From Planctomycetaceae bacterium (GTDB lineage: Bacteria > Planctomycetota > UBA8742 > UBA2392 > JABWBM01), in assembly GCA_013360495.1 (NCBI GenBank), contig JABWBM010000011.1, positions 42 through 64,041 of the forward strand: DNA of 64,000 bases. The letters run 5' to 3'. Positions 4,050 to 63,412 of this stretch are shown here, piece by piece. A program made the translations under genes and the position numbers. Below the pieces are notes generated by a model, which was not told where the DNA came from, made no database searches, and worked only from the letters and a program-made list of their open reading frames with translations. Positions within the stretch are counted from its first letter, which is position 1. Every line of letters begins with the position of its first letter.

Positions 4050-4111
4050 AGAAGATAGATAGCGTACCCGTGATGTCATGCCCGCGCAGGCGGGTAATGA
4101 CTTTGTTTCTT

Positions 4112-4197
4112 GACGTAGCGTCACGCCTATGGCGTGACGTCTTCGCCCCATTCTCAATATCGCTTACAAGACGTCACGGCATAGCCGTGACGCTACA
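4112..4197. repeat. MITE-like palindromic element, family C (TGTAGCGTCACG hairpin pair)
   Basis: gacgtagcgtcacgcctatggcgtgacgtcttc ... aagacgtcacggcatagccgtgacgctaca. The two hairpins lie in inverted orientation and the family recurs 8 times in the window. Confidence 0.8.
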
Positions 4198-7493: not shown

Positions 7494-7565
7494 CGCTTGA
7501 AAGCGCAGGAATCGCCAAGGTAAGCAGGAAAAATGAGAAAAATGTGGGGAAGAGCCACGTCGCGC

Positions 7566-7643
7566 GTCATGCCGACGAAAGTCGGCATCCAGCTACAATC
7601 AGATTTCTCGTCGCATCTGGATCCCCGCTTTCGCGGGGATGAC
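7566..7643. repeat. MITE-like element family A (forward hairpin, 24-nt spacer, reverse hairpin)
   Basis: gtcatgccgacgaaagtcggcatccag ... ctggatccccgctttcgcggggatgac. Confidence 0.85.
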
Positions 7644-7662
7644 GCCGCAGCAAGCTGCGGCG

Positions 7663-9039
7663 TCACTTACCGATGCAAAACTTGGCGAAGATGTGGTCGA
7701 GGACATCCGCCGAGGCTCCGTGGCCAAAGGCTTCGCGTATGGCGGAGAGCGCCGATCGGGCGAGGTCACTGACCACTTCGATGGGGGCGCCGCGATCCAA
7801 TTCCGAAACGGCTTCCTCCAGACGTGAGGCTGCCTCGGTAATCAGGGCTCCTTGGCGGGCGGATACAGCAGTAGTCTCCGGCGCGAGGGAGCGTTTGACG
7901 AGGGAAGTGATTCGGGACTTGAGCTCGGCGATGCCGTCGTTGGTGAGCGCGCTGACGGAGAGGGACGGATAGTCGCAGAATGGCTCTGGTAGGGGACTGG
8001 AGTTTGCGCACAGGTCGCGCTTGGTACGCACGATCAACGTACGATCATTTGTAAGATATGAGGCATTCCGGTGAAGGGGAGAATCAAAATGTAAGCAATC
8101 AAAGACTGGATTCCCGCCTTCGCGGGAATGACATGCCTTACTATCGATCACGAGTAACACAACATCGGCGCGATCCTGTTGTTCGTGGGTGGATTCAAGG
8201 GCGTGATTCTCGATCATATCGGCCGCCTGCTTCATGCCGGCGGTGTCCACGAGTTCCACGGCAATGCCGCCAAGATCGGCGGTTTCCAGCACGGCGTCGC
8301 GCGTGGTTCCGGCCTCATCGCTCACGATGGCACGCTCGCGCCCAAGGAGCGCATTGAAGAGCGTTGACTTTCCCGCGTTGGCCGGGCCGATGAGAACGAC
8401 CGACGGTTTCGCGTGGCCGGCGTGGCGCGGCGCTTCCGTGAACCGCCGCAGATGGTCAAGGGCCGCGCGCGCCATGTCCTTGAATCGGTCAAGCAATGCC
8501 TGTTCCGCCGCCTCCTCGTCAAAGTCAAAGCTCAGCTCGAACTGCGCGCACAGTGACTCAAGTTCGCTGACCAAGCGCTGGCCTTCTCGGGAGAGCGCCC
8601 CGTCCAGTACCGCGGAAAACCTGCGGGCATCTTCCTTGCCGCTGCTCGACACCAGTGCCATCACCGCTTCGGCTTGCGAGAGGTCGAGCACTCCGTTGAG
8701 ATAAGCGCGTTTACTGAACTCGCCCGGATCGGCCATGCGCGCACCGGCCTTGCACAGCTCACGCAGCACGGCGTCCACCAGCAATGGCGAGCCCGACAGG
8801 TGAATCTCCACGCAGTCTTCGCCGGTGGCGGAGTGCGGCGCTGGGGATATCCAGAGTTGTGCAGGACAAGCGCCTGCGGAAAGTTTGAGCCGTGTGCGAA
8901 CGATAGAACGCTTGGATTCAATAGATGCATCGGGGCAGAGCTTTCGCACGATCCCGATTGCCTCGTCGCCGCTCACGCGAATGGCCGCGCGGACTGCGGG
9001 AACAAGCGGCGTGGCTGGCGCGAAGATGGTTTCGGTCAC
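7663..9039 (-). CDS. mnmE: tRNA modification GTPase MnmE
   Basis: G1 motif GPANAGKSTLFNAL, G2/G3 DEAGTTRD..DTAG, and the C-terminal CIGK tetrapeptide. The gene overlaps yidC by 4 bp as in the classical arrangement. It carries an in-frame repeat insertion (next feature). Confidence 0.9.
   Translation of the reverse strand: MTETIFAPATPLVPAVRAAIRVSGDEAIGIVRKLCPDASIESKRSIVRTRLKLSAGACPAQLWISPAPHSATGEDCVEIHLSGSPLLVDAVLRELCKAGARMADPGEFSKRAYLNGVLDLSQAEAVMALVSSSGKEDARRFSAVLDGALSREGQRLVSELESLCAQFELSFDFDEEAAEQALLDRFKDMARAALDHLRRFTEAPRHAGHAKPSVVLIGPANAGKSTLFNALLGRERAIVSDEAGTTRDAVLETADLGGIAVELVDTAGMKQAADMIENHALESTHEQQDRADVVLLVIDSKACHSREGGNPVFDCLHFDSPLHRNASYLTNDRTLIVRTKRDLCANSSPLPEPFCDYPSLSVSALTNDGIAELKSRITSLVKRSLAPETTAVSARQGALITEAASRLEEAVSELDRGAPIEVVSDLARSALSAIREAFGHGASADVLDHIFAKFCIGK
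8062..8132. repeat. MITE family A copy embedded in-frame inside mnmE
   Basis: ggcattccggtgaaggggagaatc (degenerate unit) plus a 20-nt spacer plus ctggattcccgccttcgcgggaatgac. It is translated as CHSREGGNPVFDCLHFDSPLHRNASYLTND between the G3 and G4 (TKRD) motifs. Confidence 0.8.
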
Positions 9040-13806: not shown

Positions 13807-13925
13807 GTAGCGTCACGGCTATGCCGTGACGTCTTGCTCTATTCGAAAGCCGCCACAGCAAGCCGTGGTGTCACGGAAAATGTCTATCAAACGTTTGTCC
13901 GTCACGCCATAGGCGTGACGCTACA
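13807..13925. repeat. MITE-like element family C
   Basis: gtagcgtcacggctatgccgtgacgtcttg ... gtcacgccataggcgtgacgctaca. The terminal gctaca overlaps the trmB stop codon. Confidence 0.8.
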
Positions 13926-22645: not shown

Positions 22646-22753
22646 TCTGGATTCCGGCTTTTACCGGAATGACACGTTGCATTGTTCTGTATTTCTCTGC
22701 GTCCTTTGCGCCTTTGCGGTGAAAAAACTGGATTCCCGCCTGCGCGGGAATGA
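22646..22753. repeat. composite repeat: two MITE-A hairpin units in direct orientation flanking a MITE-B arm fragment
   Basis: ctggattccggcttttaccggaatgac ... tttctctgcgtcctttgcgcctttgcggtgaaaaaa ... ctggattcccgcctgcgcgggaatgac. Confidence 0.75.
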
Positions 22754-22755
22754 CA

Positions 22756-24801
22756 TCAATACGCCAGCACCTTCTTCACCGCGTCGAAGACGATCTTTTC
22801 GTTTGGCTGCATGGCTGCTTCGAGGGTCTTGTTGAACGGGACGGGGATATATTTCTGGCCAACGCGTTCCACGGGCGCGTCGAGGTACTCGAAGCACTCG
22901 TGCATGATCTGCGCCACGATCTCACCGCCGAAGCCGGAGAACACCTTGTCTTCATGAACGACGAGCGCGCGGCTGGTCTTGCAGGCGGATTTGACGATGG
23001 CGCCGGTGTCGAGTGGGTTGAGGCTGCGCACGTCCAAAACCTCGACGGAAATGTTTTCCTTCTCCGCCATTTCGGCCGCCTTCATGGACCACATCACGCC
23101 GCTGCCGTAGGTGATGATGGAGATGTCGTTGCCTTCCTTGCGCAGGCGCGCCTTGCCGAAGGGAACGACGAAGTCTTCCGCGACTTTGCAGCGCGTGAAG
23201 GGATGGTTGTACATCGCCTTCGGTTCGAGATAGAGAATCGCGCCCTGAGAACGCATGGCCGTACGCATCAGTCCGGCTGCGTCGTCGGCGTAGCACGGCG
23301 TCACCACGCGCAGGCCGGGGATGCTGGTGAAAATCGCTTCGAGGTTCTGGCTATGGTAGAGGCCGCCGCCAATGTTACCGCCTGAAGCGAGGCGCAGGAT
23401 CACGTTGGGCGAGAATTGGCCATAGGTGCGCCAGTATTCGTGGGAAAGTTCGATGATCTGGTCCATAGCGGGCCAGACGTAATCGGCGAATTCCGCGGCT
23501 TCCACGACGACGCGAATCTTCTGGTCGAAGCGCGAGAAACCATTGGCGGTGCCGACGATATAGTTCTCGGCGATCGGGGCGTTGAACACGCGCTTGTTGC
23601 CGAACTCGTGCTGCATACCGTCGGAGACCTTGAAGATGCCTTCCTTCTCGCCGCTCGCCATGTCCTGCCCCCACATGAAGGTGTCGGGGTTGCGGCGGAA
23701 CTCGGTTTTGAGCGCCTGATTGATGCCTTGACGCAGCGTGCAGACCTCGCCGGTATCAGAGGCTGGAATGCCCTCCGGGTTTTCTGTGCATGGATAGGCC
23801 GGCGGCAGCAGGTGATCCTCGACGGTGGAGATGTCGGCGATGGGCGCCGCGCTGCCGTATTCGACTGCGGCGTTGAATTCCTTCTCAGCGTCGGCTTCGA
23901 TTTCCTTGAGTTGAGATTCGGTGGCCAGCTTTTCTTTGAGAAGGAAATTGCGGAAGATGGGGAGCGGGTCGCGCTTCTTGGCTTCCTCAAGCTCCTTTTC
24001 GCTGCGGTAGAGTGTGTGGTTATCGGAGTTCGAATGCGGGCCGATGCGCGCGCACATGGCGTAGACGATGGCGCAGCCTTCGCCTGCGCTGACGAAATCC
24101 ACGGCGGCCTGCATGGAACGGAAGCAGGCGAAGACGTCGCGCCCGTCGCAAATCTCGATGTGCAGGTTGCCGATGCCGCGGTAGTTCTCGGCGAGGATTT
24201 CGTTGGCGCTTTGTTCGCGCTTGGGCACGCCGATGCCGTAGCCATTGTCCTGCATGACGAAGACGACGGGGAGTTTCTCGCGCGAGCTGCCATTAATCGC
24301 CTCGAAGACGTAGCCCTCGGAACTTGAGGACTCGCCAAAGCTCGCGTAGGCGATGGCGTCGCTCTTGTAATACTTGGCGGCGCGGGCAACTCCGGCGGCG
24401 TGCTGCGCGTGGTTGGATACACAGCTCGATACGTTTTGGATATTGATCGCGGGTTTAGCGAAGTGGTTCGACATGTGGCGGCCCTTGCCGGCCACGTCTT
24501 CCTCGCGCGACAATCCGTTCAGGATGATTTCCTTCGCCGTGAGGCCCGCAGCCAACGACGTGACCAGGTCGCGGTAATATGGGAAGAGATAGTCCTTGCC
24601 TTGGCGGAAGGTGCAGCCGAGCGCCACCTGAATGGCGTCGTGGCCCGCGCATGGGGCGTGGTAGGACCAGCCCATGTTTTTGCGCAGGAAGTTCGGCGCC
24701 TCCTCGTCAAGCAGGCGGCCGAGGTACATCAGGCGGTAGACCTGCTCATGGCCGGGGTAACGTTCGCTGGGGACTTCAAGCGTCGCGGTTTTCTGTTTCA
24801 T
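22756..24801 (-). CDS. 2-oxoacid dehydrogenase E1 component, fused alpha (TPP-binding) and beta (transketolase-like) subunits
   Basis: TPP motif GESSSSEGYVFEAINGS...VFVMQDNGYGI in the N-terminal half and E1-beta pyrimidine/transketolase C-terminal domains in the second half. ATG at 24801, because the longer ORF runs into a repeat. Confidence 0.8.
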   Translation of the reverse strand: MKQKTATLEVPSERYPGHEQVYRLMYLGRLLDEEAPNFLRKNMGWSYHAPCAGHDAIQVALGCTFRQGKDYLFPYYRDLVTSLAAGLTAKEIILNGLSREEDVAGKGRHMSNHFAKPAINIQNVSSCVSNHAQHAAGVARAAKYYKSDAIAYASFGESSSSEGYVFEAINGSSREKLPVVFVMQDNGYGIGVPKREQSANEILAENYRGIGNLHIEICDGRDVFACFRSMQAAVDFVSAGEGCAIVYAMCARIGPHSNSDNHTLYRSEKELEEAKKRDPLPIFRNFLLKEKLATESQLKEIEADAEKEFNAAVEYGSAAPIADISTVEDHLLPPAYPCTENPEGIPASDTGEVCTLRQGINQALKTEFRRNPDTFMWGQDMASGEKEGIFKVSDGMQHEFGNKRVFNAPIAENYIVGTANGFSRFDQKIRVVVEAAEFADYVWPAMDQIIELSHEYWRTYGQFSPNVILRLASGGNIGGGLYHSQNLEAIFTSIPGLRVVTPCYADDAAGLMRTAMRSQGAILYLEPKAMYNHPFTRCKVAEDFVVPFGKARLRKEGNDISIITYGSGVMWSMKAAEMAEKENISVEVLDVRSLNPLDTGAIVKSACKTSRALVVHEDKVFSGFGGEIVAQIMHECFEYLDAPVERVGQKYIPVPFNKTLEAAMQPNEKIVFDAVKKVLAY

Positions 24802-24837
24802 AGTGTTGCACCGTAAACCGTGTTGCACCGTCAACCA

Positions 24838-24874
24838 AAGACGTAGCGTCACGCGCCCTCGCGTGACGGTCTTC
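24838..24874. repeat. MITE family C single hairpin unit
   Basis: aagacgtagcgtcacgcgccctcgcgtgacggtcttc. Confidence 0.7.
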
Positions 24875-25008
24875 TCCAGCACAGCTGTTTGCCACGACGC
24901 CATGCAGGGGCGCATGGCGCTACGGCGATATGCTGTGAGTCAGCCGAGCAGTTTACTTGCGCAGCGCGTTTTGGGGAATTGAAAACGGCGGGTATGAGAC
25001 GTGAAAAA

Positions 25009-29432: not shown

Positions 29433-29501
29433 GTAGCGTCACGGCCATGCCGTGACGTCTTCCGGCCGATTAAGACGTCACGCTATAAGCGTGACGCTAC
29501 A
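29433..29501. repeat. MITE-like element family C
   Basis: gtagcgtcacggccatgccgtgacgtcttc ... aagacgtcacgctataagcgtgacgctaca. Confidence 0.8.
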
Positions 29502-35400: not shown

Positions 35401-35808
35401 ATGAAACGGCCAGACACATCCATCAGCGAACGCGAGCGGCGTAGGGAGGATCGCGTCGCCGCCCGCTTCCCATTGGAATACTTCTTCATTCATGCCTCGG
35501 AGCAGCGCCATACGAAGCAATTCCGGCGAGGTCATACCCATAACGTCAGCCCCCATGGCGTCTTTTTCGAGGCCGATGTGGTAGATCCGTCGATCATTCC
35601 CCTCGCCATGCAGGGGGAGATTCAGATCGCCGTGCGCGTCACGGCCCCGGACTTGCGTACGATCGAAGGCACCACGCGCCTCGCTTGGGCGGAGCCGGTC
35701 AAGGCCGACGGGAAACACCGCTTCTTCGTCGGGGTCGAGTACCTCGACGTATCCGAAGGCGACGCCAAGTATCTCTACGATGCGGCCTGCGATCAGGCCG
35801 ACAGGTAA
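35401..35808 (+). CDS. PilZ-domain protein (putative c-di-GMP receptor)
   Basis: RRxxxR (RRREDR) and N-x-S-x-x-G (NVSPHG) motifs. Confidence 0.55.
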   Translation: MKRPDTSISERERRREDRVAARFPLEYFFIHASEQRHTKQFRRGHTHNVSPHGVFFEADVVDPSIIPLAMQGEIQIAVRVTAPDLRTIEGTTRLAWAEPVKADGKHRFFVGVEYLDVSEGDAKYLYDAACDQADR

Positions 35809-35841
35809 ACCCGCCTCATTGCGTGCAAAGTCCTCCCGAGC

Positions 35842-35921
35842 CGTCACACCGGCGGAAGCCGGTGTCCAGGAGCTATCAGAAAACATTCGTCGTGTCTGGA
35901 TTCCGGCTTACGCCGGAATGA
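35842..35921. repeat. MITE-like element family A (paired hairpins)
   Basis: gtcacaccggcggaagccggtgtccag ... ctggattccggcttacgccggaatgac. Confidence 0.85.
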
Positions 35922-35968
35922 CGGCCGTATCGCATTTTCGAGCGAAGAGTTGGTATAAGCCGCTCCCG

Positions 35969-36913
35969 ATGAGAATCTTCCATAGCTTCGATGAGTTCAA
36001 GGCAGGCGGGGGCGAATGCCGCCGCTCGCGGCCCATCGTCACGGTGGGCAGTTTCGACGGCGTCCACATGGGACACCAGCGGCTGATCGCCGACATGCGA
36101 AGCTGGGCGGACGAGCAGCGCTGCGAAACGCTGATACTCACCTTCCATCTTCACCCGCGCACATTCATGACCGGCGTGCCGATCAAGCGGATCACGAGTG
36201 TCGAGCACAAGCTCGATCTGCTGGCGTCCTTGGGCGTGGACAACACCTTGCTCGTGCATTTCGATGAGGCGCTGCAAGCGACAAGCGCGCGGGACTTTTG
36301 CGCGAACTATCTGGTGCAGATGTTCAATTGCCGCGGCTTGTTGCTCGGCCATAACAACAGCATCGGTCGTGGCCGCGAGGGGACGCCCGAGCGTGTGAAG
36401 GAATACGGTAAGGAGCTTGGCTTCGAAGTGCGCGTCACGGACGCCGAAACTATCGGATCATTGCCGCTGTCGAGTTCCGCCATACGCACAGCGATTGAAA
36501 GCGGCGATTTCATGCAAGCAAAGACCATGCTCGGCCGGCCGTATTCCATCCAGGGCAAAGTGATCGAGGGCCGAAAACTCGGGCGCACCATCGGTGTACC
36601 TACCATGAATCTCTCGCTCGAAGGCATGGTGCATCCGCCCAATGGCGTCTATGGCGTGCGGGTGCGCCTTGATGGGAATGAATATGCAAGCGTCGCCAAC
36701 ATCGGCGTGCGTCCGACGGTCGAGCCGGGCAGGACTGAGCCATTGCTCGAAGTTCACGCCCTTGACTTGAGCGGCGACTGGTATGGTCGTAGCATCGACG
36801 TCGAATTCATATTTCGCGTGCGCGACGAGCGGCAATTCTCCGGCGTGGAGGAATTACGCGCGCAGTTGCAACGCGACATCGCGGAAGTGCGAAAGCGCTT
36901 TCAGACTACATAG
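35969..36913 (+). CDS. ribF: bifunctional riboflavin kinase / FMN adenylyltransferase
   Basis: VTVGSFDGVHMGHQRLI (FAD synthetase) and C-terminal riboflavin kinase (GRTIGVPTMNL...GVYGV). The longer ORF N-terminus is repeat-derived (WIPAYAGMT). Confidence 0.85.
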   Translation: MRIFHSFDEFKAGGGECRRSRPIVTVGSFDGVHMGHQRLIADMRSWADEQRCETLILTFHLHPRTFMTGVPIKRITSVEHKLDLLASLGVDNTLLVHFDEALQATSARDFCANYLVQMFNCRGLLLGHNNSIGRGREGTPERVKEYGKELGFEVRVTDAETIGSLPLSSSAIRTAIESGDFMQAKTMLGRPYSIQGKVIEGRKLGRTIGVPTMNLSLEGMVHPPNGVYGVRVRLDGNEYASVANIGVRPTVEPGRTEPLLEVHALDLSGDWYGRSIDVEFIFRVRDERQFSGVEELRAQLQRDIAEVRKRFQTT

Positions 36914-37500: not shown

Positions 37501-37735
37501 AAGATTGAACCACGGAGATCACGGAGACCACGGAGAGAGAAAGATTTCTCACCACGGGGGAAATCGGGGAAATCGGGGAAAGAAGTTCTCACGCAAAGGC
37601 GCGAAGCCGCAAAGAATTCGTGATTTTCCGTATGAATTCAATTCAATTATTCTTGCTTTCCTTTGCGCCTTGGCGGCTTTGCGTGAAAATCTTTGTTCTT
37701 CCCCGCGAATCCCGGTGTTCCCCGTGGTGAAAAAC
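37501..37735. repeat. MITE-like element family B
   Basis: Arms tctcaccacgggggaaatcggggaaatcgggg...cacgcaaaggcgcgaag // ctttgcgcc...cttccccgcgaatcccggtgttccccgtggtgaaaaa around an AT-rich core. Confidence 0.75.
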
Positions 37736-37789
37736 GTCTTTCTCCCCGGCGTTTGGGCGTTTCGGTCGTATCATCAACGTGGAGAATCG

Positions 37790-39016
37790 ATGCGACGATT
37801 GATCTTAGCCGGCATGTCCTGCCTTGCTGTCCTGTGCGTGGTGCGCGCGCAGGAAGGGCCATCGTCCGCTCCGGACACAAAAACGCCTGCCGCGCCTGCA
37901 CCAAAAAGCGAAGAGCCGCCCGCCGCGCCATCGCCACGCGCCGGAGAGCCGAAGCTCGACACACTTACGTTGCGCGAAACGCGCCCATGTGTGTTCTCCC
38001 CGCGCATCCCGGCGGAGTATCTTCGCGACCATCAAGCCAAGCAACTCGCCACGGCTCGTCTCTCCCTCGACCTTGACAAGGCAGGCGTGCTGGAGCTCGC
38101 CTACGGCGAAGAACGCACGCAGGCCCCTGTGATCGCGGCTTTTGTCGACGAAAAGGAGAGCGAGTCGAAGCTCGACACGGAACTCTATCGCTCGCGCGCT
38201 GACCGTTCGATGTTGCTCGTGTTCACCGTCAAGTCCGCGCCAAAAAATTTCGGCGCGTATACATTGCTGATCGAACATACGCAGGTGAACGAAGCCGGCG
38301 AGCAGGCGGTCAAAAGCATGCAATTTCACAACCTCGAAACCTTCACGCGGCAACGAGTCACGATTCCCGGCATGCTCCCCGGCGTGAACCGCCTTTGCCT
38401 CAAGGTGCGTTTCACGGATGACAACAAGGTCACCACCACCAGTGACGGCATAAGCCATTTCGTGACGGTGAATGAGGTTCCCGCCCTTGCGCTGAGCACA
38501 GAAACAAAGGCCGAAACGAACGTCAAGAAAGCGCAAGGGGTTGGAGTCTATGAGGCGTTGTTGACCACCACGCATACGTTCATACTCTCGCCCTCAGTTG
38601 ATCCCGCGTCGGTACGTCTGCGGGTGCTGAGACGCGGTTCGCGCGGCTTCGACCTAGACGGCGTCGATACGGATGTGCGCGATTTAATCGGCCAGCCTGT
38701 CTACCAAAAGAGCGCGCGGCTCTTGGCCGAAGTGAAACTCGCCAACGAGGCGGCGCCGGGTGTGCGCGTCGAGAATATGGGACAGCGCCGCTATCGAGTT
38801 ACGGTGGAGCATGCGTTGAGCGCTACGGAGAGTTTGATGCCGCTTACCGACGAGTGGGAATATCTCTTTGAGTTGCGGCACAAGGATCACAACGATGCCA
38901 TCGACAGTTTTTCCCATTCGGTTGGCGCGCTTCTCGACACCGATGTTGCCTATGTGACGTATAAGAATCGCGCCGGAGCCGATGTGGTGCGCGTGCCGTT
39001 CAAGCCTGCGGAATGA
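37790..39016 (+). CDS. secreted hypothetical protein
   Basis: Signal peptide MRRLILAGMSCLAVLCVVRAQEG. The upstream part of the longer ORF is repeat-derived. Confidence 0.5.
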   Translation: MRRLILAGMSCLAVLCVVRAQEGPSSAPDTKTPAAPAPKSEEPPAAPSPRAGEPKLDTLTLRETRPCVFSPRIPAEYLRDHQAKQLATARLSLDLDKAGVLELAYGEERTQAPVIAAFVDEKESESKLDTELYRSRADRSMLLVFTVKSAPKNFGAYTLLIEHTQVNEAGEQAVKSMQFHNLETFTRQRVTIPGMLPGVNRLCLKVRFTDDNKVTTTSDGISHFVTVNEVPALALSTETKAETNVKKAQGVGVYEALLTTTHTFILSPSVDPASVRLRVLRRGSRGFDLDGVDTDVRDLIGQPVYQKSARLLAEVKLANEAAPGVRVENMGQRRYRVTVEHALSATESLMPLTDEWEYLFELRHKDHNDAIDSFSHSVGALLDTDVAYVTYKNRAGADVVRVPFKPAE

Positions 39017-39035
39017 GAGCGTGACCGGAAGCCCC

Positions 39036-39119
39036 GTAGCGCCACGCTTCAGCGTGGCGTCTTCGACTGTTCGGAAATCTTCGGTTTCTTCAAGACGCCA
39101 TGCTAAAGCATGGCGCTAC
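39036..39119. repeat. MITE family C variant (GCCACGC stems)
   Basis: gtagcgccacgcttcagcgtggcgtcttc ... aagacgccatgctaaagcatggcgctac. Confidence 0.6.
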
Positions 39120-39699
39120 CGGAAGACGCCGCTCCATTGCCCTTCGCGACTTTCGGAACCGCGCGGCTGAGCCTGAAGGCCGCGAGCAAAATCAAGAGCG
39201 TCACCGCCGCCAGCGCCAACGGCGCCCATGACAAATGCCAACTCATGCTTCCATCAACAGGTAGGTCTGTGTCCAGCGGGGTTTCCGTGGTCTGTCGTAC
39301 AGACATGGCGCTATGTCCGGTGAGCAATGCCGCTGCCGGAACGACGATGCCAAGCGCGATAATAATCATTCCAAAAGCCCCAAGTATCGCTCCGTCTCGT
39401 GTCTTCAACTGTGTTCGTAGCCGCAGCAGCGGAATGCCGCACGAGGGAAGCAATATTAAGAGAAGATAGCCTCCATAGCGGTGGAGAATTTCGAGAGCAG
39501 GGGCAAGAGTATCGTAGAGGGCGCCGATGGTCTGGTCGCGCTCGGCAGGCGCGACGGCGTCCGCATAGTTGCTGAGCGAGCCGCTCAGAGCAAGCAGGAA
39601 GATCAAGGTCATCGCTAGACCCGCCCGCACGGTGAATCGCTTGCGCAGAAGAAGCGCATCGGGGGGCGGCAACATCTTTTGTGCCGGAGAGGATTCCAC
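39103..39699 (-). CDS. membrane protein (hypothetical), last gene of the ABC/GldG-like cluster
   Basis: 4-5 predicted TM helices. Confidence 0.4.
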   Translation of the reverse strand: MESSPAQKMLPPPDALLLRKRFTVRAGLAMTLIFLLALSGSLSNYADAVAPAERDQTIGALYDTLAPALEILHRYGGYLLLILLPSCGIPLLRLRTQLKTRDGAILGAFGMIIIALGIVVPAAALLTGHSAMSVRQTTETPLDTDLPVDGSMSWHLSWAPLALAAVTLLILLAAFRLSRAVPKVAKGNGAASSGSAML

Positions 39700-41958: not shown

Positions 41959-41990
41959 ACCAACCCTAAATGGGAAAGGTGATTTCGACC

Positions 41991-42070
41991 GTCATTCCGG
42001 CGAAAGCCGGAATCCAGATATAACGGGCGATTCTCGGTAGCCACTGGATGCCGACTTTCGTCGGCATGAC
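41991..42070. repeat. MITE-like element family A (paired hairpins)
   Basis: gtcattccggcgaaagccggaatccag ... ctggatgccgactttcgtcggcatgac. Confidence 0.85.
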
Positions 42071-42103
42071 GGACGCAATCCAACAACCAATTAAGACTTC
42101 GTT

Positions 42104-42862: not shown

Positions 42863-42871
42863 CTAACGAAC

Positions 42872-42898
42872 GTCATTCCCGCGAAGACGGGAATCCAT
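42872..42898. repeat. MITE family A single hairpin unit
   Basis: gtcattcccgcgaagacgggaatccat, in the 49-bp gap between the ATPase and permease genes. Confidence 0.7.
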
Positions 42899-48783: not shown

Positions 48784-49506
48784 TCACATCCCCGGCATGG
48801 CGGCGAGCAGAAGGTCTGGGAGATAACCGCCGTCGTCCAGCATTTCGCCCGCGCGGCGCACCAATCCAACATTGGGCCATTGCTTGCGTGCCTTGTCGAT
48901 GAGCGTGCGGGCATCATCCTCGCGCCGCGCAGCCTGATGACAGGCCGCGAGCATCACCCACAGGCGCGGCTCGCCGGGCGAGAGCGTCAGCCCTGCTTTG
49001 GTTAGGCGCGTGGCGCGTTCAGTCATACCCTGCGACAGGTGGATCAGCGCGCGCAGTTCGACGGCGGCCGCGTTCGCTCCTGCCTCTCGCAGCAGCCTAA
49101 GAGCCTCGCCAGAATCGCCGTCGAGCAACGCCGCGACACCAAGGCCGTACGTGATGCTCGAGGCGTCCATGCGGTATTCGAGAAAACCCGCGAGCGAGTG
49201 AAGCGCGAAGCGGGCGCGGGCGGTGTCGGCCGCATTGATGGCCAGCCTCGCTTCGGCGATCAAGCGCGCGATTTTTCGTTTGCGCAGGATCAGATAGAGC
49301 GCCAACCCGACTTCGAAGGCCAGCAGCGCCGCCACCAGCACCAGGTAGAGCACGCCTTCCGCGGTCGTGCCTTGGCGCAGCAAGACGACGCCCGCAAAGC
49401 TGAGCCCGCTCGCTGCAAGACCCACGACGGCGGCCTGTACCGCGTGCAGCAGGATGAGCGGGAGGATGAAGCGGCGATTGCGGGCTGGACGAGGGTTGAA
49501 GTGCAT
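48784..49506 (-). CDS. TPR-repeat membrane protein
   Basis: Two N-terminal TM helices and TPR-like helical repeats. The longer ORF N-terminus is repeat-derived (IPAQAGIQ...WMPAYAGMT). Confidence 0.55.
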   Translation of the reverse strand: MHFNPRPARNRRFILPLILLHAVQAAVVGLAASGLSFAGVVLLRQGTTAEGVLYLVLVAALLAFEVGLALYLILRKRKIARLIAEARLAINAADTARARFALHSLAGFLEYRMDASSITYGLGVAALLDGDSGEALRLLREAGANAAAVELRALIHLSQGMTERATRLTKAGLTLSPGEPRLWVMLAACHQAARREDDARTLIDKARKQWPNVGLVRRAGEMLDDGGYLPDLLLAAMPGM

Positions 49507-49558
49507 CCCGGATTCCCGCGAGTTATGCAAACCTTGGGTGCAAATTCGATGTTCAGCC

Positions 49559-49626
49559 GTCATGCCCGCGTAGGCGGGCATCCAGTCTTCTCTTTGTATC
49601 TGGATTCCGGCTTGCGCCGGAATGAC
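49559..49626. repeat. MITE-like element family A (paired hairpins, 14-nt spacer)
   Basis: gtcatgcccgcgtaggcgggcatccag ... ctggattccggcttgcgccggaatgac. Confidence 0.85.
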
Positions 49627-49705
49627 GATACCAATCATCCATGGTATCAAACGAGGCAGACGCGCGGACGTTCGATGAAAGATGCTTTGAGATCCCGCCG
49701 GTGGG

Positions 49706-50950
49706 TTACTTCTTTTTCTTTCCGCTATCGGCGGGTTGCTTCTTGGGTGGTAGCTTGAAGAACTTGGTACGCTCGGCGCCATTACGCTCGAAGACGACGG
49801 TGAATTCGGTCACTCCCTCGTTCCGTAAATTCATGACGAGATTCTTGGCTGCTTCGATAGTGGTTACCGGAGTTCCATTGACAGACTTGAGAATATCTCC
49901 GCCACGCGCACCTGCGCGGTAGGCGAGACTATCCGAAGGAAGGGAGTCATTGAATTTAAGGCCAACGTCGTTGCCTTCCATATCAGTTTGGCGGGAGACA
50001 TAACTGGTCATGGCTTCCAACACTCCCGCGTTCATGTCTTCCCAGCCGAGCTGGACGTTATCGCCGACAACCTTGGTCGTTCTGTTCTCTTCCGACATGT
50101 CCCACGGCGATTCGTCGGCGGCTGCATCGACAGGCGGTATCTGCTTGGAAGCGTCATCTATTTTCTTGTCAGGGCCGGTAAGCCTACTCGGGCTCGAGCC
50201 GCCTATTGTCTTTTTGACGCCGATAAACGCATCCTTGTAATCCTCATAAGGGACTTCGAGCGTGATCTCGTAGCGGCCATTGACGGGTTGCAGCTTCTTG
50301 TCGAGCTTCTCGATCTTCTCCGGTGGCGTTGTTTTGATCGCCTCCGTCAGTTCCTTGGTAGTGACGGCGAGGATGATGTAGTTGCCGTTAATTTCGGTGA
50401 TGATGGCGTCCATGGTGTTGCTGATCTGCGTGCCGTAGTCGGGGTTATCGTCCTTGGGAAATTTCGCCTGAATATTCGTTCCTTTTTCGACGGCCATCTC
50501 CATGCCGTCGAATCCCTTCCCCTTCAGTTCGAGCGCAACCCAACTCCTCAAGCCTTCGACCGACGCTAAAACGTCGGGCATCTTGACGACGCGGATGACG
50601 GAGAATTTGCTCGCGACTTCCTTCTCGATGTTGTCGCGGATTTTCTTGAAGTCGACGCCTTCGTCGATGGGTTTCGTGGTGCCGCCTCCGCTGATTACGG
50701 TTTCAATCTTTGACGCAGGTCCGGGCATGATGTTGACCGGCTTGAACGAGATCGACGTATTCTTGTTCTTGAGGCTTTCCCACGTTTCAGGTGGGTCGAT
50801 CTTCATGATGTTTTTGTCGCGAAGGCGGGCGTCGAGCGATTCGCGCTCGCTCTTCTGGTCGCTATAAAAATCGAATGCCAAGTAGCCGCCCCCCGCGAGC
50901 AGCGCGAGGTTCGTCACCCAAAGGACTGTTGGCAGCGGCGATTTTCTCAT
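49706..50950 (-). CDS. PDZ-domain membrane protein (GspC-like architecture), low-GC
   Basis: N-terminal TM and C-terminal PDZ (GARGGDILKSVNGTPVTTIEAAKNLV...EFTVVFERNG). ~48% GC. Confidence 0.45.
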   Translation of the reverse strand: MRKSPLPTVLWVTNLALLAGGGYLAFDFYSDQKSERESLDARLRDKNIMKIDPPETWESLKNKNTSISFKPVNIMPGPASKIETVISGGGTTKPIDEGVDFKKIRDNIEKEVASKFSVIRVVKMPDVLASVEGLRSWVALELKGKGFDGMEMAVEKGTNIQAKFPKDDNPDYGTQISNTMDAIITEINGNYIILAVTTKELTEAIKTTPPEKIEKLDKKLQPVNGRYEITLEVPYEDYKDAFIGVKKTIGGSSPSRLTGPDKKIDDASKQIPPVDAAADESPWDMSEENRTTKVVGDNVQLGWEDMNAGVLEAMTSYVSRQTDMEGNDVGLKFNDSLPSDSLAYRAGARGGDILKSVNGTPVTTIEAAKNLVMNLRNEGVTEFTVVFERNGAERTKFFKLPPKKQPADSGKKKK

Positions 50951-50974
50951 GCGACTATCCTAACTCTCCCCGTC

Positions 50975-51061
50975 GTCATGCCGGCGTAAGCCGGCATCCA
51001 GTCTTTTTTCTCTACGTCTCTTTCTTTTCAACGTCTGAATTCCGGCTTGCGCCGGAATGAC
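50975..51061. repeat. MITE-like element family A (paired hairpins)
   Basis: gtcatgccggcgtaagccggcatccag ... ctgaattccggcttgcgccggaatgac. Confidence 0.85.
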
Positions 51062-51108
51062 GCTCGTATCCCTTTAATACGCTCCAACGCTGTATTCGTT
51101 TGGAAAAT

Positions 51109-52113: not shown

Positions 52114-52227
52114 GGGTGTGGGATTTCTGTGTTCGAAAAGTCGCTGTCGATTGTTCGCTCTAGCGCCACGGATGTGTTCTGCGTAACGCGCTTCGCACAA
52201 TAGAGTGCGATCAGGCCTTTGTCTTCT

Positions 52228-52353
52228 GTAGCGTCACGGCTACGCCGTGACGTCTTGTCCGAAAATCAAGCATTGGGTCGAAGACGTCACGCCATAGGCG
52301 TGACGCTACATTCTTATTCGCACTGCATTCCGCGGGGGCGCGTGACGCTACGA
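52228..52353. repeat. MITE-like element family C (pair plus an extra half-unit)
   Basis: tgtagcgtcacggctacgccgtgacgtcttg ... gaagacgtcacgccataggcgtgacgctaca ... gcgcgtgacgctacg. Confidence 0.8.
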
Positions 52354-54438: not shown

Positions 54439-54473
54439 AGCTTATCCTCGAAAAAAGATGCGTTTTTGCGTGC

Positions 54474-54553
54474 GTCATGCCGACGAAAGTCGGCATCCAG
54501 GACCCATGAAAAGACAAAAAGTTAAGATGGATTCCGGCTTTCGCCGGAATGAC
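54474..54553. repeat. MITE-like element family A (paired hairpins)
   Basis: gtcatgccgacgaaagtcggcatccag ... atggattccggctttcgccggaatgac. Confidence 0.85.
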
Positions 54554-54597
54554 GTTATAAACGCCAACCATTCATGGGGGCAGTAAGAGCCCTCGTA

Positions 54598-58281: not shown

Positions 58282-58331
58282 ATGATCTTCCTTCAGATAG
58301 GTCTGTTATTCGGGAAGAATACAACCACGCC

Positions 58332-58410
58332 GTCATTCCGGCGAAAGCCGGAATCCAGTCTTATGGACATTTTTTGGTCGCTTCTGGATACCGGCTTTCG
58401 CCGGTATGAC
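58332..58410. repeat. MITE-like element family A (paired hairpins)
   Basis: gtcattccggcgaaagccggaatccag ... ctggataccggctttcgccggtatgac. Confidence 0.85.
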
Positions 58411-58494
58411 GCCCTGTGGCGCGTGGGGTTCTTGGGAATGCAATACAACATAGGCCTTCGATCTTACGTTTGTCCGACCTTTGGCAAGCGGAAA

Positions 58495-59199
58495 TCAGGC
58501 GCTCAAGCGCAGGAAATTGCGGAGCAGGTCGTGGCCGTGCTCGGTCAGGATCGCCTCGGGGTGGAACTGCACGCCCCAGATCGGGAGCTCGCGGTGTTCG
58601 ATCGCCATCACCACACCGTCGTCGCTTCGTGCAGTGACGCGCAATGATGGCGGCAGCGTGTCCTCCTTCACCGCAAGCGAATGATAGCGGCACACGCGCA
58701 GTGGATTCGGTAGCCCGGCGAGGAGGCCGCTGCCATTGTGGGTGACGAGTGATGTCTTGCCGTGCACAGGTTCGGGAGCGTGGGTGACGCTTGCGCCGAA
58801 GTGTTGCGCGATTGCCTGATGGCCTAAACATACCCCAAGGATCGGCACGTGGCCCGCGAACGCCTTGATCACGTCGAGCGTCTTTCCGGCGCACTCCGGC
58901 GTCCCCGGCCCGGGAGAGATGCAGACGCGTTTTGGTTGCAATTGTTCAGGAAACCGTAGTCTCGAGTAGGTCGTCCTGAGCTTGTCGAAGGGCGGCCGTA
59001 TCGAGAGACGGTCCTTCTCGTGTCCCGTATCTCGATACGCGCCTCCGGCGCTACTCGATATGACGGATTTTGAATGTGGCTCATCCAAAAGATCTACAAC
59101 AAATGCGTCATTGCGCAGCACGGTCACGTCCTCGCCCAGCTCGTGGAAATACTGCACGAGGTTAAACGTGAACGAATCGTAGTTATCGATCAAGAGCAT
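58495..59199 (-). CDS. glutamine amidotransferase (anthranilate/aminodeoxychorismate synthase component II)
   Basis: [18 protein letters not shown]...ISPGPGTPE...[13 protein letters not shown]...HSL...FHPE catalytic triad. It contains a 46-aa in-frame insertion (next feature). Confidence 0.8.
58942..59079. repeat. 138-bp palindromic element inserted in-frame in the amidotransferase gene
   Basis: ccgtatcgagagacgg / cccgtatctcgatacg and ctcgagtagg / ctactcgata inverted pairs. Translated as [46 protein letters not shown] at a position where homologues have ~8 aa. Confidence 0.7.
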
Positions 59200-59264
59200 G
59201 GGGGAATTATGCTGATCTACTGGGCGATACGCCACGTTGTAAAGCCCCATATGATGGATAAAAT

Positions 59265-60035
59265 ATGGCAATGCTCCTGACCATAACGCCCAGCATGCTG
59301 ATCTCGGCGCTGGTCATCTTCATCGCTCTCGCATTCTTCATCATGGAGCGCGTTCGTCCGGGGCGTGGTTTACCCAATTCTCGCGGTTGGTATGTGCGCG
59401 CCCTCTTCCTCAATCTCGCCCAATACGGTGTCGTGACACTGGCCGGGGTAACATGGGAAGACTGGCTCCACGGTTCTTCATGGCTCGATATCGCCTCCGT
59501 CATGCCATCGCCAGTTCAGGGAGTGTTGGCATGGTTCATCGGCACGTTTATTTTCTATTGGTGGCATCGCATACGTCACGATTCTGATTTTCTGTGGCGG
59601 AGTTTACACCAGATTCATCACAGCGCATCACGCATAGAAGCCTTGACGGCGTTCTACAAACATCCAGCGGAGATGATCGTCAACTCGGTGATCATCAGCC
59701 TGGTCTTGTTTACGATGCTGGGCGCTGACCTCGAGGCGGCTGCATGGTTCAATCTCTTCGCTGTTTCAGGGGAATTTTTCTACCACAGCAATATCAAGAC
59801 TCCTCACTGGGTGGGTTATTTCATGCAGCGTCCGGAGCACCATTCGATTCATCATCAGTACGATGTCCACAAATTCAATTTTGGCGACATTACGTTGTGG
59901 GACAGGCTCTTTGGGACATTCAAGGATACACGAGAATTCGCGCCGCGATGCGGTTTTGACGAGGGCAAGGAAGAACAGATTGGGAAGATGCTCGTATGGG
60001 TGGACGTCAATCGAGCACAGGCTGCAAGAAGCTGA
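59265..60035 (+). CDS. fatty acid hydroxylase / sterol desaturase-family membrane protein
   Basis: Histidine boxes [17 protein letters not shown] and HHSIHHQ. Confidence 0.75.
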
Positions 60036-60220
60036 TAAGGCGTCTTCAATCCCCCCGAATGACGTAAATCATTGCCTAGAACCCCTTAAGCGCACAATCA
60101 CGCCACAAATTTTTCCTAAAAAGTTCAAGTCGCACCTGCGCTTTTCCCGATAAACATAGCAGAGGTGTTCTACCGAAGTCTTGGGTAACGGCAACGCACG
60201 GCGAGAGCCTCAAACGTGCG

Positions 60221-60496
60221 ATGTCGTCGAACTCGGAGGATTCTCCTCTCCCCGCCCTGAGGCTCAGGGCCCGAAGCCACGGATGGCGACGGCAGAAGAT
60301 GAAAGGATTCATCATGCGGACCGGTCGTGCCGCACGTCGGGACCGGATCCTGATGTCGCTCCCGGAGTCACGGCAGCAGAGAGTTCTGAGTCTCAAGTCA
60401 TTGATCGACTCGGAACACTATGCGCCTGACATTGATGGGAAGCTTGAACTGGTGGTCGACGATCTGATCGACGAAGCCATCAAACTTCGAGCCTAG
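60221..60496 (+). CDS. small protein with FlgM-like C-terminus (possible anti-sigma-28 factor)
   Basis: RVLSLKSLIDSEHYAPDIDGKLELVVDDLIDEAI compared with the FlgM C-terminal consensus RVAALKAAIAAGTYKVDAEKIADKLL. Weak. Confidence 0.3.
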   Translation: MSSNSEDSPLPALRLRARSHGWRRQKMKGFIMRTGRAARRDRILMSLPESRQQRVLSLKSLIDSEHYAPDIDGKLELVVDDLIDEAIKLRA

Positions 60497-60588
60497 ACAT
60501 TCAGTATTCGGTCTGGCACACCCAGACGAGGCAACACGCGGGGTAACTCGCGTGTTGCCACTTTAGGCGAACGTCAGGTTGATTTTCA

Positions 60589-60661
60589 TGTAGCGTCACG
60601 CGCACCCGCGTGACGGACTAGTTCAAAGACAAGACGCCATGCGAGGGCGCATAGCGCTACA
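60589..60661. repeat. MITE-like element family C
   Basis: tgtagcgtcacgcgcacccgcgtgacgg ... aagacgccatgcgagggcgcatagcgctaca. Confidence 0.75.
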
Positions 60662-60669
60662 AAAATGTC

Positions 60670-63318: not shown

Positions 63319-63385
63319 CTTGAGAGTCCGGAGTCCGGCGTGCGGAGTCCGGTGTCGAACCCATAGAAAGCGGGTTCACTTATAT

Positions 63386-63412
63386 GTCATTCCCGCGGAG
63401 GCGGGAATCCAT
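63386..63412. repeat. MITE family A single hairpin unit
   Basis: gtcattcccgcggaggcgggaatccat. Confidence 0.7.

Follow-up and report, generated by a model that had tools for sequence, protein, structure and literature searches.

Members of the CGTC-1 family of repetitive extragenic palindromic (REP) sequences are recognised by A-T at stem positions one and two and by a CGTC tag, for which TGTC or CCTC variants are allowed (Di Nocera, De Gregorio & Rocco 2013; PMC3733652). In the same study CGTC-1 is equated with dRS3 of Neisseria and with Rickettsia palindromic element (RPE) 6 of R. conorii, CGTC REPs are without a known dedicated transposase, and the position of REPs downstream of open reading frames (ORFs) is argued to suggest RNA-level roles. 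REPs of both superfamilies occur wholly within ORFs in several species, with dimers encoding 20-30 aa making up over half of these inserts (PMC3733652). In-frame CGTC-1 dimers of 22-24 aa include SIPAKAGIQTGPSMDSRLRGNA in the DNA polymerase I of Micavibrio and one in a DNA methyltransferase (PMC3733652, Additional file 3). Here we analyse a dimer of this kind inside mnmE, the gene of a tRNA-modifying GTPase, of an uncultured planctomycete. The DNA, termed the window, comprises 64,000 nucleotides from a metagenome-assembled genome (MAG) of a Planctomycetaceae bacterium (GCA_013360495.1, contig JABWBM010000011.1, positions 42 to 64,041). An earlier note on the window had taken in-frame insertion to be undescribed for this repeat family. 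The cases published in 2013 contradict this: both the phenomenon and the family were already described, and what is new is only the host gene mnmE and the planctomycete lineage.

A repeat dimer in the reading frame of mnmE

Within mnmE, a head-to-head dimer at positions 8061-8133 (73 nt) is in frame with the coding sequence; it consists of an intact and a decayed unit, which are separated by a spacer of 17 nt. It is translated as CHSREGGNPVFDCLHFDSPLHRNA, in the parts CHSREGGNP-VFDCLHF-DSPLHRNA, and the repeat-derived codons amount to 24 aa (C303-A326) between the G3 (DTAG) and G4 (TKRD) motifs. The claim of the earlier note that a copy of the dominant intergenic repeat of the window lies in frame at this place is thus borne out by a 27-mer search, a profile search and a position weight matrix (PWM). 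The pairing of a degenerate with an intact unit stood as well. The proposed extent did not: 8062-8132, a 20-nt spacer and ~30 aa are corrected to 8061-8133, 17 nt and 24 aa, and the last six residues of the peptide then proposed, SYLTND (8044-8060), are not repeat-like. That flank may be co-inserted DNA or a remnant of helix alpha3 of the G domain.

In the PWM, which was built from 18 intergenic units, the intact unit in mnmE scores 40.3 bits, inside the range of the intergenic units. Its hairpin, with an 8-bp stem (ATTCCCGC/GCGGGAAT) and the 4-nt loop GAAG, is predicted to fold at -13.7 kcal/mol, like those of the intergenic units. The spacer is within the range of the family (14-33 nt) and starts CCAG|TCTT as in three intergenic dimers; the tail extension AAGACTGG / CCAGTCTT recurs in the dimers that begin at 49558, 50974 and 58331. 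Moreover, the outer peptides of the mnmE dimer resemble translations of intergenic copies, such as RHSGESRNP and LDSGFRRND. The whole dimer folds into one long hairpin of -33 kcal/mol (z=-4.4), compared to -39 to -57 kcal/mol for the four intergenic dimers that were folded. The decayed unit no longer forms its hairpin: at -1.8 kcal/mol it does not fold better than shuffled sequences.

The gene is otherwise intact to its CIGK end, as the earlier note had stated. The ORF has 458 codons without stops or frameshifts, and G1-G5, the N-terminal domain and CIGK are conserved. It shows the architecture of MnmE, in which an N-terminal domain is combined with a helical domain that carries an inserted Ras-like G domain, and the three corresponding Pfam domains are found (TrmE_N, 6.5e-27; MMR_HSR1, 8.4e-22; MnmE_helical, 7e-29). 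Solved MnmE structures in the Protein Data Bank (PDB) match the protein at E=3e-53, and MnmE structures are the top Foldseek matches of its AlphaFold model. Since yidC is found directly upstream, in the same arrangement as at the loci of relatives, 7663..9039 is the canonical mnmE locus. As a side observation, TKxD replaces the canonical G4 motif NKxD in most of the eight nearest homologues (P0002-P0005 and P0007-P0008), while P0006 has SKSD.

A repeat-mediated mis-join during assembly might in principle have put the repeat within mnmE. Contigs from Logan of the same strain, which are 100% identical to 58333-61250 (loci L089-L094), mostly end inside REP units at 58333 or 58384, which indicates that REPs fragment short-read assemblies of this organism. 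However, the two flanks of the mnmE dimer are colinear, in-frame halves of one mnmE. The identical MnmE protein is found under two NCBI accessions ('Planctomycetes/Planctomycetota bacterium' MAG proteins) and on three contigs, and the 9.8-kb contig JAPKHD010000089.1 of a second assembly (GCA_026647195.1) is 100% identical to the window across 4909 nt. Thus, an assembly artefact is extremely unlikely.

Table 1. Positions of mnmE, its motifs, the repeat units and the second gene with an insertion, in coordinates of the window.
Feature	Position	Strand	Description
mnmE (tRNA U34 carboxymethylaminomethyl-modification GTPase)	7663..9039	-	458 aa, GTG start, C-terminal CIGK
G3 motif DTAG	8236..8247	-	residues 265-268; D265, A267 and G268 are invariant alignment columns
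Intact REP unit in mnmE	8106..8133	-	gene sense TGTC-ATTCCCGC-GAAG-GCGGGAAT-CCAG; (C)HSREGGNP(V), residues 303-312
Spacer of mnmE dimer	8089..8105	-	17 nt with CCAG tail counted in unit; translated FDCLHF
Decayed partner REP unit in mnmE	8061..8088	+	inverted relative to intact unit, tag outward; DSPLHRNA, residues 319-326
AT-rich flank encoding SYLTND	8044..8060	-	not repeat-like; G or C at third position in 0/6 codons
G4 motif TKRD	8014..8025	-	residues 339-342; K340 and D342 invariant; T-for-N variant of NKxD
Intergenic head-to-head REP dimer	7565..7644	.	19 nt downstream of mnmE stop; fold -50.8 kcal/mol; reference copy
Intergenic head-to-head REP dimer	58331..58411	.	among best-scoring reference copies
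Intergenic REP dimer	35842-35923		
Intergenic REP dimer	41990-42071		
Intergenic REP dimer	49558-49627		
Intergenic REP dimer	50974-51062		
Intergenic REP dimer	54473-54554		
REP units in direct (head-to-tail) pair	22647-22674 and 22728-22755		span 22647-22755
Single REP unit	42871-42898		
Single REP unit	63385-63412		
Partial REP unit	4074-4101		
GTAG-tagged REP dimer	4115-4196		
GTAG-tagged REP dimer	13807-13924		
GTAG-tagged REP dimer	29433-29500		
GTAG-tagged REP dimer	39033-39122		
GTAG-tagged REP dimer	52227-52310		
pabA/trpG-like glutamine amidotransferase (GATase) gene	58495..59202	-	carries 46-aa in-frame insertion at ~58948-59085

The repeat family in the window

The 27-mer at 8106-8132 has eight copies in the window at ≤3 mismatches, compared to none in 100 shuffles, and the profile search recovers ~20 repeat units. 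On one strand the units have the layout CGTC-AT-stem-GNAA-stem-AT-CCAG. The tag is CGTC in 15 of the 19 full units, including all fourteen of the seven intergenic dimers, and TGTC in the intact mnmE unit and three others; the tail is CCAG in 15, CCAT in three and TCAG in one. Across the units 97% of the stem cells are paired, and four of the eight pairs have changed on both sides, which is compensatory covariation. Seven intergenic head-to-head dimers with the tags outside, one direct pair, two single units and one partial unit make up the arrangements outside mnmE. The spacers of the intergenic dimers (14-33 nt) are T-rich and not conserved, the eight dimers of the window including that in mnmE having eight different ones, and several stem variants are found among them. 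Most intergenic copies lie within ~100 nt downstream of a stop codon, and the dimer at 35842-35923 is between divergent ORFs.

The CGTC or TGTC tag, the 8-bp stem starting with AT, the 4-nt loop, the CCA tail and the prevalence of tags-outside dimers downstream of ORFs are those of CGTC-1. Judged by these features, the mnmE repeat is a member of the CGTC-1 REP family, and the label that the earlier note had given it, MITE (for miniature inverted-repeat transposable element), is not supported. Target-site duplications were not found: the longest direct repeats in the flanks are 2-5 nt (±4 nt slack) and inconsistent between copies. The spacers differ, the hairpins are those of classical REPs, and a Pfam scan of the ~50 largest ORFs of the window, with three left unscanned, found neither Y1_Tnp, the domain of REP-associated tyrosine transposases (RAYTs), nor another transposase or insertion sequence. 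A longer element with complementary flanks, suggested by folding, was discarded, since register-exact comparison gave only 1-7 of 14 matches, which is chance level. On either side of the mnmE copy, the pair GTAAG/CTTAC does not keep the register and is probably due to chance. In Rfam no match reached the gathering score; FtrB, RsmY and DUF1874 were returned at 14-23 bits, against gathering scores of 42-66, and are chance matches.

Of the 12 repeat loci in the window, the mnmE copy is the only one that is unambiguously within a conserved gene. Two further dimers, 49558-49627 and 35842-35923, each have a stop-free frame in the 5' extension of a maximal ORF, 48784..49782 (tetratricopeptide repeat (TPR) protein) and 35780..36913 (ribF), respectively. 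Because the Pfam domains of both ORFs begin far downstream of the repeats, these dimers are almost certainly intergenic, and the true starts of the ORFs almost certainly located downstream of them. In total, 16 of the 42 reading frames of the intergenic dimers are free of stops (~40%), and frame-compatible insertions are therefore not rare. For annotation this is a warning, as REP dimers with so many open frames inflate N-terminal ORF extensions, in addition to breaking short-read contigs.

Two of the intergenic copies adjoin other features. At 7640-7665 there is a perfect hairpin with a 12-bp stem (TGACGCCGCAGC AA GCTGCGGCGTCA), possibly a terminator or else a third REP-like module, which overlaps the TGA stop codon of mnmE as well as the dimer 7565-7644 at its outer end. 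The second unit of the direct pair, an arrangement that is called rare in the literature, abuts exactly the stop codon of the E1 dehydrogenase ORF 22756..24915.

The repeat lies at the alpha3 position of the G domain

We then compared the site with MnmE homologues and structure models. In a search of 5.8 billion proteins for an orthologue with an empty site, no match other than the identical protein exceeded 51% identity, and the loci given by a scan of species-representative genomes were all at ≤36% identity. Between the residues aligned to D299, at the end of strand beta4, and K340 of G4 there are 40 aa in the planctomycete protein; the median of 53 homologues is 29 aa and the range is 16-53 aa. 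The nearest relatives (P0002-P0005) have 29-32 aa at this site, the sequence of which is unrelated to the repeat, and a neighbour-joining (NJ) tree places the query beside P0002, followed by P0003-P0005, with P0007 in another subclade. The net gain over the nearest relatives is thus 8-11 aa, compared to 24 aa that are repeat-derived. With the unit profile, nhmmer found nothing in seven loci of the nearest MnmE relatives and one marginal match in 80 distant loci, so that the relatives are uninformative on the age of the repeat.

The AlphaFold2 (AF2) model of the mnmE product has a mean predicted local distance difference test (pLDDT) score of 81.7. It shows low-confidence coil at 304-320, followed by an 8-residue helix (321-328) just before beta5. 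Residues 305-312, in the intact unit, are modelled as coil with pLDDT <50, and the decayed unit overlaps the short helix. In the model of P0002 a 13-residue helix, alpha3, is found at the same place between beta4 and beta5 (306-318). According to these models, the repeat overlies the position of alpha3 of the G domain and not a loop. The expectations of the earlier note about this site therefore need revision. Homologues do not have a shorter acidic linker there; their median of 29 aa includes alpha3. Nor was a segment added to a surface loop at the exact boundaries of the repeat, given the small net gain and the position over a helix. What did hold is that the relatives do not share the ~30-aa segment and that the gene is not split.

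The same alignment shows how variable the site is. P0007 has 16 aa between the residues aligned to 299 and 340, and P0008 has 53 aa that are rich in proline and serine (loci L087 and L086, respectively). This shows that the site between beta4 and beta5 tolerates large changes in length, and the alpha3 segment is an indel hot spot in this clade of MnmE. A REP-like repeat was not found in the P0008 locus. Addition of the 24 repeat-derived residues to a short ancestor like P0007 would give the 40 aa directly. This is not parsimonious, as the NJ tree groups the query with P0002-P0005.

An element that overlies a secondary-structure element instead of a loop might have crippled the G domain, leaving an mnmE that is functionally dead or dying with an open frame. 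The gene is dispensable in most E. coli backgrounds and in many bacteria, which would permit such a loss and also makes the designation as an essential gene in the earlier note an overstatement. However, the intact frame, the conserved motifs and domains and the confidence of the rest of the model all speak against this, as does the tolerance of the site seen in P0007 and P0008. A dead or dying mnmE is, therefore, quite improbable.

One REP unit or two

The excess over the relatives raises the question of how much of the segment came from the repeat. A single REP unit with a few bases of spacer (~30-33 nt) might have been inserted, adding 10-11 aa (CHSREGGNPVF). The rest of the segment, DCLHFDSPLHRNASYLTND, would then be ancestral alpha3, the alpha3-region sequence at stake being DCLHFDSPLHRNA, and the match of the decayed partner to 19 of 27 consensus positions would be due to chance. 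The lengths agree with this: if 11 aa are subtracted, 29 aa remain between D299 and K340, exactly the median of the homologues and within the 29-32 aa of the nearest relatives, and the modelled helix 321-328 has the position that alpha3 has in P0002.

The DNA of the partner unit points the other way. It scores 11.4 bits in the PWM and ranks 22nd of ~128,000 positions, the higher ranks being taken by the 19 true units, a partial unit and a chance match, and only ~1-2 unrelated positions score as high. Moreover, it has the exact orientation and spacing of the seven intergenic dimers; given this orientation and a distance of a few tens of nt from the intact unit, we estimate a conditional p of ~5e-4 to 1e-3. 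The spacer is T-rich like those of the family and has the CCAGTCTT start, and DSPLHRNA resembles LDSRLRGND and LDSGFRRND of the family. The G+C content at third codon positions (GC3) of mnmE reaches its minimum of 0.27 at codons 316-330, comprising spacer, decayed unit and flank, which is below the rest of the gene (mean 0.69), and the overall GC content is 0.43-0.47 across 8020-8170. Because of what the DNA of the partner unit and of the spacer shows, we prefer displacement of ancestral residues by a dimer, and insertion of a single unit appears unlikely.

On balance, we consider it probable that a dimer of CGTC-1-type REP units became part of the coding sequence of mnmE and has been kept as a tolerated selfish passenger. 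The dimer, perhaps together with some AT-rich bases beside it, would have entered mnmE by the process that spreads these repeats, for which a RAYT-type single-strand transposase and recombination or template switching are candidate routes. It would have displaced or overwritten ~13-15 ancestral residues, resulting in the net gain of 8-11 aa. It may have been retained because its length kept the frame and because change is tolerated in this part of the GTPase domain, which is peripheral and naturally varies in length. The intact unit would now encode a disordered surface loop (HSREGGNP), and the decayed unit and the flank would supply a short helix at the position of alpha3. We propose that the insert has no useful role, its only likely side effect being a hairpin of -14 kcal/mol in the mRNA. 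The insert is modelled as low-confidence coil with a short peripheral helix, and the ORF and its motifs are intact.

Several points weigh against this reading. The decayed partner is weak when taken alone, since its nhmmer match is not significant across the window (E=3.3). An unrelated coding site at 58879-58906 outscores it (13.1 bits). This REP-like site, in the GATase gene (Table 1), was rejected as a repeat because it encodes the conserved motif SPGPGTP; it is a chance match and serves as an example of the null. An excess of 8-11 aa agrees better with one REP unit than with a dimer of 24 aa, which additionally requires the loss of ancestral residues. Low GC3 also reaches flanks that are clearly ancestral (0.47 at codons 281-300), and composition is thus only suggestive. 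As the nearest relatives are ~50% identical and none is an empty-site orthologue, the insertion is inferred from DNA similarity. Furthermore, the helix at 321-328 may have been imposed on the AF2 model by the alignment, and the scanned ORFs of the window do not include a mobilising enzyme.

Alternatively, the insert might have been co-opted. Its mRNA hairpin could act as a signal for processing, stability or pausing in a yidC-mnmE transcript, or its loop could be a lineage-specific interaction surface of MnmE. The first unit keeps a perfect 8-bp stem even though the encoded peptide looks unconstrained, and most REPs of the CGTC-1 family are situated just downstream of stop codons, suggesting roles at the RNA level. 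However, a recent insertion explains the perfect preservation equally well. The second hairpin has decayed, and the long fold is weaker than in the four intergenic dimers that were compared. Rfam gave no match at the gathering score, and the insert comes from a single lineage. Co-option is thus very unlikely, and the tolerated passenger remains the preferred explanation.

A palindromic insertion in a pabA/trpG-like gene

A second gene of the window, which encodes a pabA/trpG-like GATase (Table 1), also carries an in-frame palindromic insertion. The 46 aa are absent from nine aligned homologues that are 60-65% identical and from the PabA/TrpG chains in the PDB. The 119 best non-identical homologues of the product are all 185-224 aa long. 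A nested palindrome, the outer arms of which are 58951-58969/59051-59069 and the inner arms 58997-59011/59025-59039, encodes the insertion and folds at -52 kcal/mol. Its DNA is 100% identical in six independent run-level assemblies (loci L089-L094), and there is no second copy of the palindrome within the 64-kb window. It is a different element from the repeat in mnmE and a cleaner RPE-like case. Two of the ~50 largest ORFs of the window, mnmE and pabA/trpG, thus contain in-frame palindromic inserts. The insertion in the GATase gene and the second REP family described below suggest that the genome is rich in REPs and that palindromes are tolerated within its coding sequence.

Other repeats in the window

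The window contains a second REP family, which is GTAG-tagged (GTAGCGTCACGGCTATGCCGTGACGTCTT) and forms five tags-outside dimers, all of them intergenic. It carries the same tag as the REPs of E. coli and differs in this from the repeat in mnmE; side by side with the CGTC units, it means that the genome carries both REP superfamilies. At 13921 and 39103 the CTA in the tag of this family doubles as the stop codon (TAG) for the neighbouring ORF on the minus strand. Another inverted repeat, of a third kind, is found at 37586-37689, with 29-nt arms that are 86% complementary and 46 nt apart (TTCTCACGCAAAGGCGCGAAGCCGCAAAG...). The maximal ORF 37505..39016, which has no Pfam match, contains this repeat within its first 60 codons.

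Comparison with known systems

The closest described cases are the in-frame CGTC-1 dimers. Two of the peptides published for them, VIPAKAGIQ and LDSRLRGND, recur as translations of the repeat in this window. Four differences stand out. First, the host is an uncultured planctomycete, whereas the intragenic table of PMC3733652 has only GTAG-type entries (R. baltica) for Planctomycetes. Second, mnmE, trmE or a GTPase is absent from the host genes of that study, and a search of the literature gave no case of a REP or RPE that lies in mnmE, trmE or thdF. Third, the spacers in the window, at 14-33 nt, are at the short end of the 20-100 nt given in PMC3733652. Fourth, the mnmE dimer overlies a helix, with an apparent loss of ancestral residues. 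The mnmE case extends the examples of palindromic selfish DNA that has turned protein-coding to a host that is new at the phylum level and to a new gene. If confirmed, the position of the repeat over a G-domain helix is relevant to the extent to which non-coding DNA can rebuild a conserved fold.

The dRS3 units of Neisseria, which form REP doublets termed REPINs, are similar in sequence, their core ATTCCCGCGCAGGCGGGAATC and the core ATTCCCGCGAAGGCGGGAATC found here being two loop bases apart, and they also occur as inverted pairs (10.1101/2021.07.10.451892). However, Neisseria REPINs are a population around one master sequence that is tied to a Group 2 RAYT (Bertels & Rainey), whereas the copies in the window differ in spacers and stems. 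Among the eight dimers there is neither a conserved spacer nor a master sequence, although with 64 kb sampled a genome-wide master is possible. Neisseria units are mostly found in large clusters (PMC3733652), which is not the case for those of the window.

E. coli REPs and the bacterial interspersed mosaic elements (BIMEs) built from them share with the repeat in mnmE the hairpin units in alternating orientation, the variable short linkers, the position downstream of genes and the compensatory changes in stems. They differ in being GTAG-tagged, RAYT-associated and strictly extragenic. The Correia elements (CREE) of Neisseria are likewise small non-autonomous repeats in or beside genes. They are 100-155 bp long, end in terminal inverted repeats of 26 bp and have a target duplication of TA; the repeat in mnmE is unrelated to them in sequence, has no target duplication and is not a member.

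Finally, the earlier note had likened the insertion to Rickettsia palindromic elements in coding genes, and the comparison is supported. As the RPEs are presented in PMC3733652 (citing Ogata et al. 2000/2002), they too are selfish palindromes that became fixed in the reading frames of housekeeping genes, with the gene open and the insert expected at the surface. RPE-1 is longer, at ~100-150 bp, and has many intragenic copies. Rickettsia has a reduced intracellular genome, whereas the host here is a 60% GC planctomycete MAG. Moreover, as far as the RPE cases are described there, they are clean additions relative to orthologues, compared to an overlay of alpha3 with a net gain of 8-11 aa in mnmE. 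A wider reading, which we put forward only tentatively and regard as rather doubtful, is that this lineage parallels Rickettsia while being free-living and GC-rich, that several unrelated palindromic families have repeatedly been fixed in frame in its housekeeping genes, and that the codons of the mnmE repeat have replaced part of the core helix alpha3 in a GTPase fold that is universally conserved. With two in-frame palindromic insertions in 64 kb, the genome may serve as a system outside Rickettsia in which to study such insertions.

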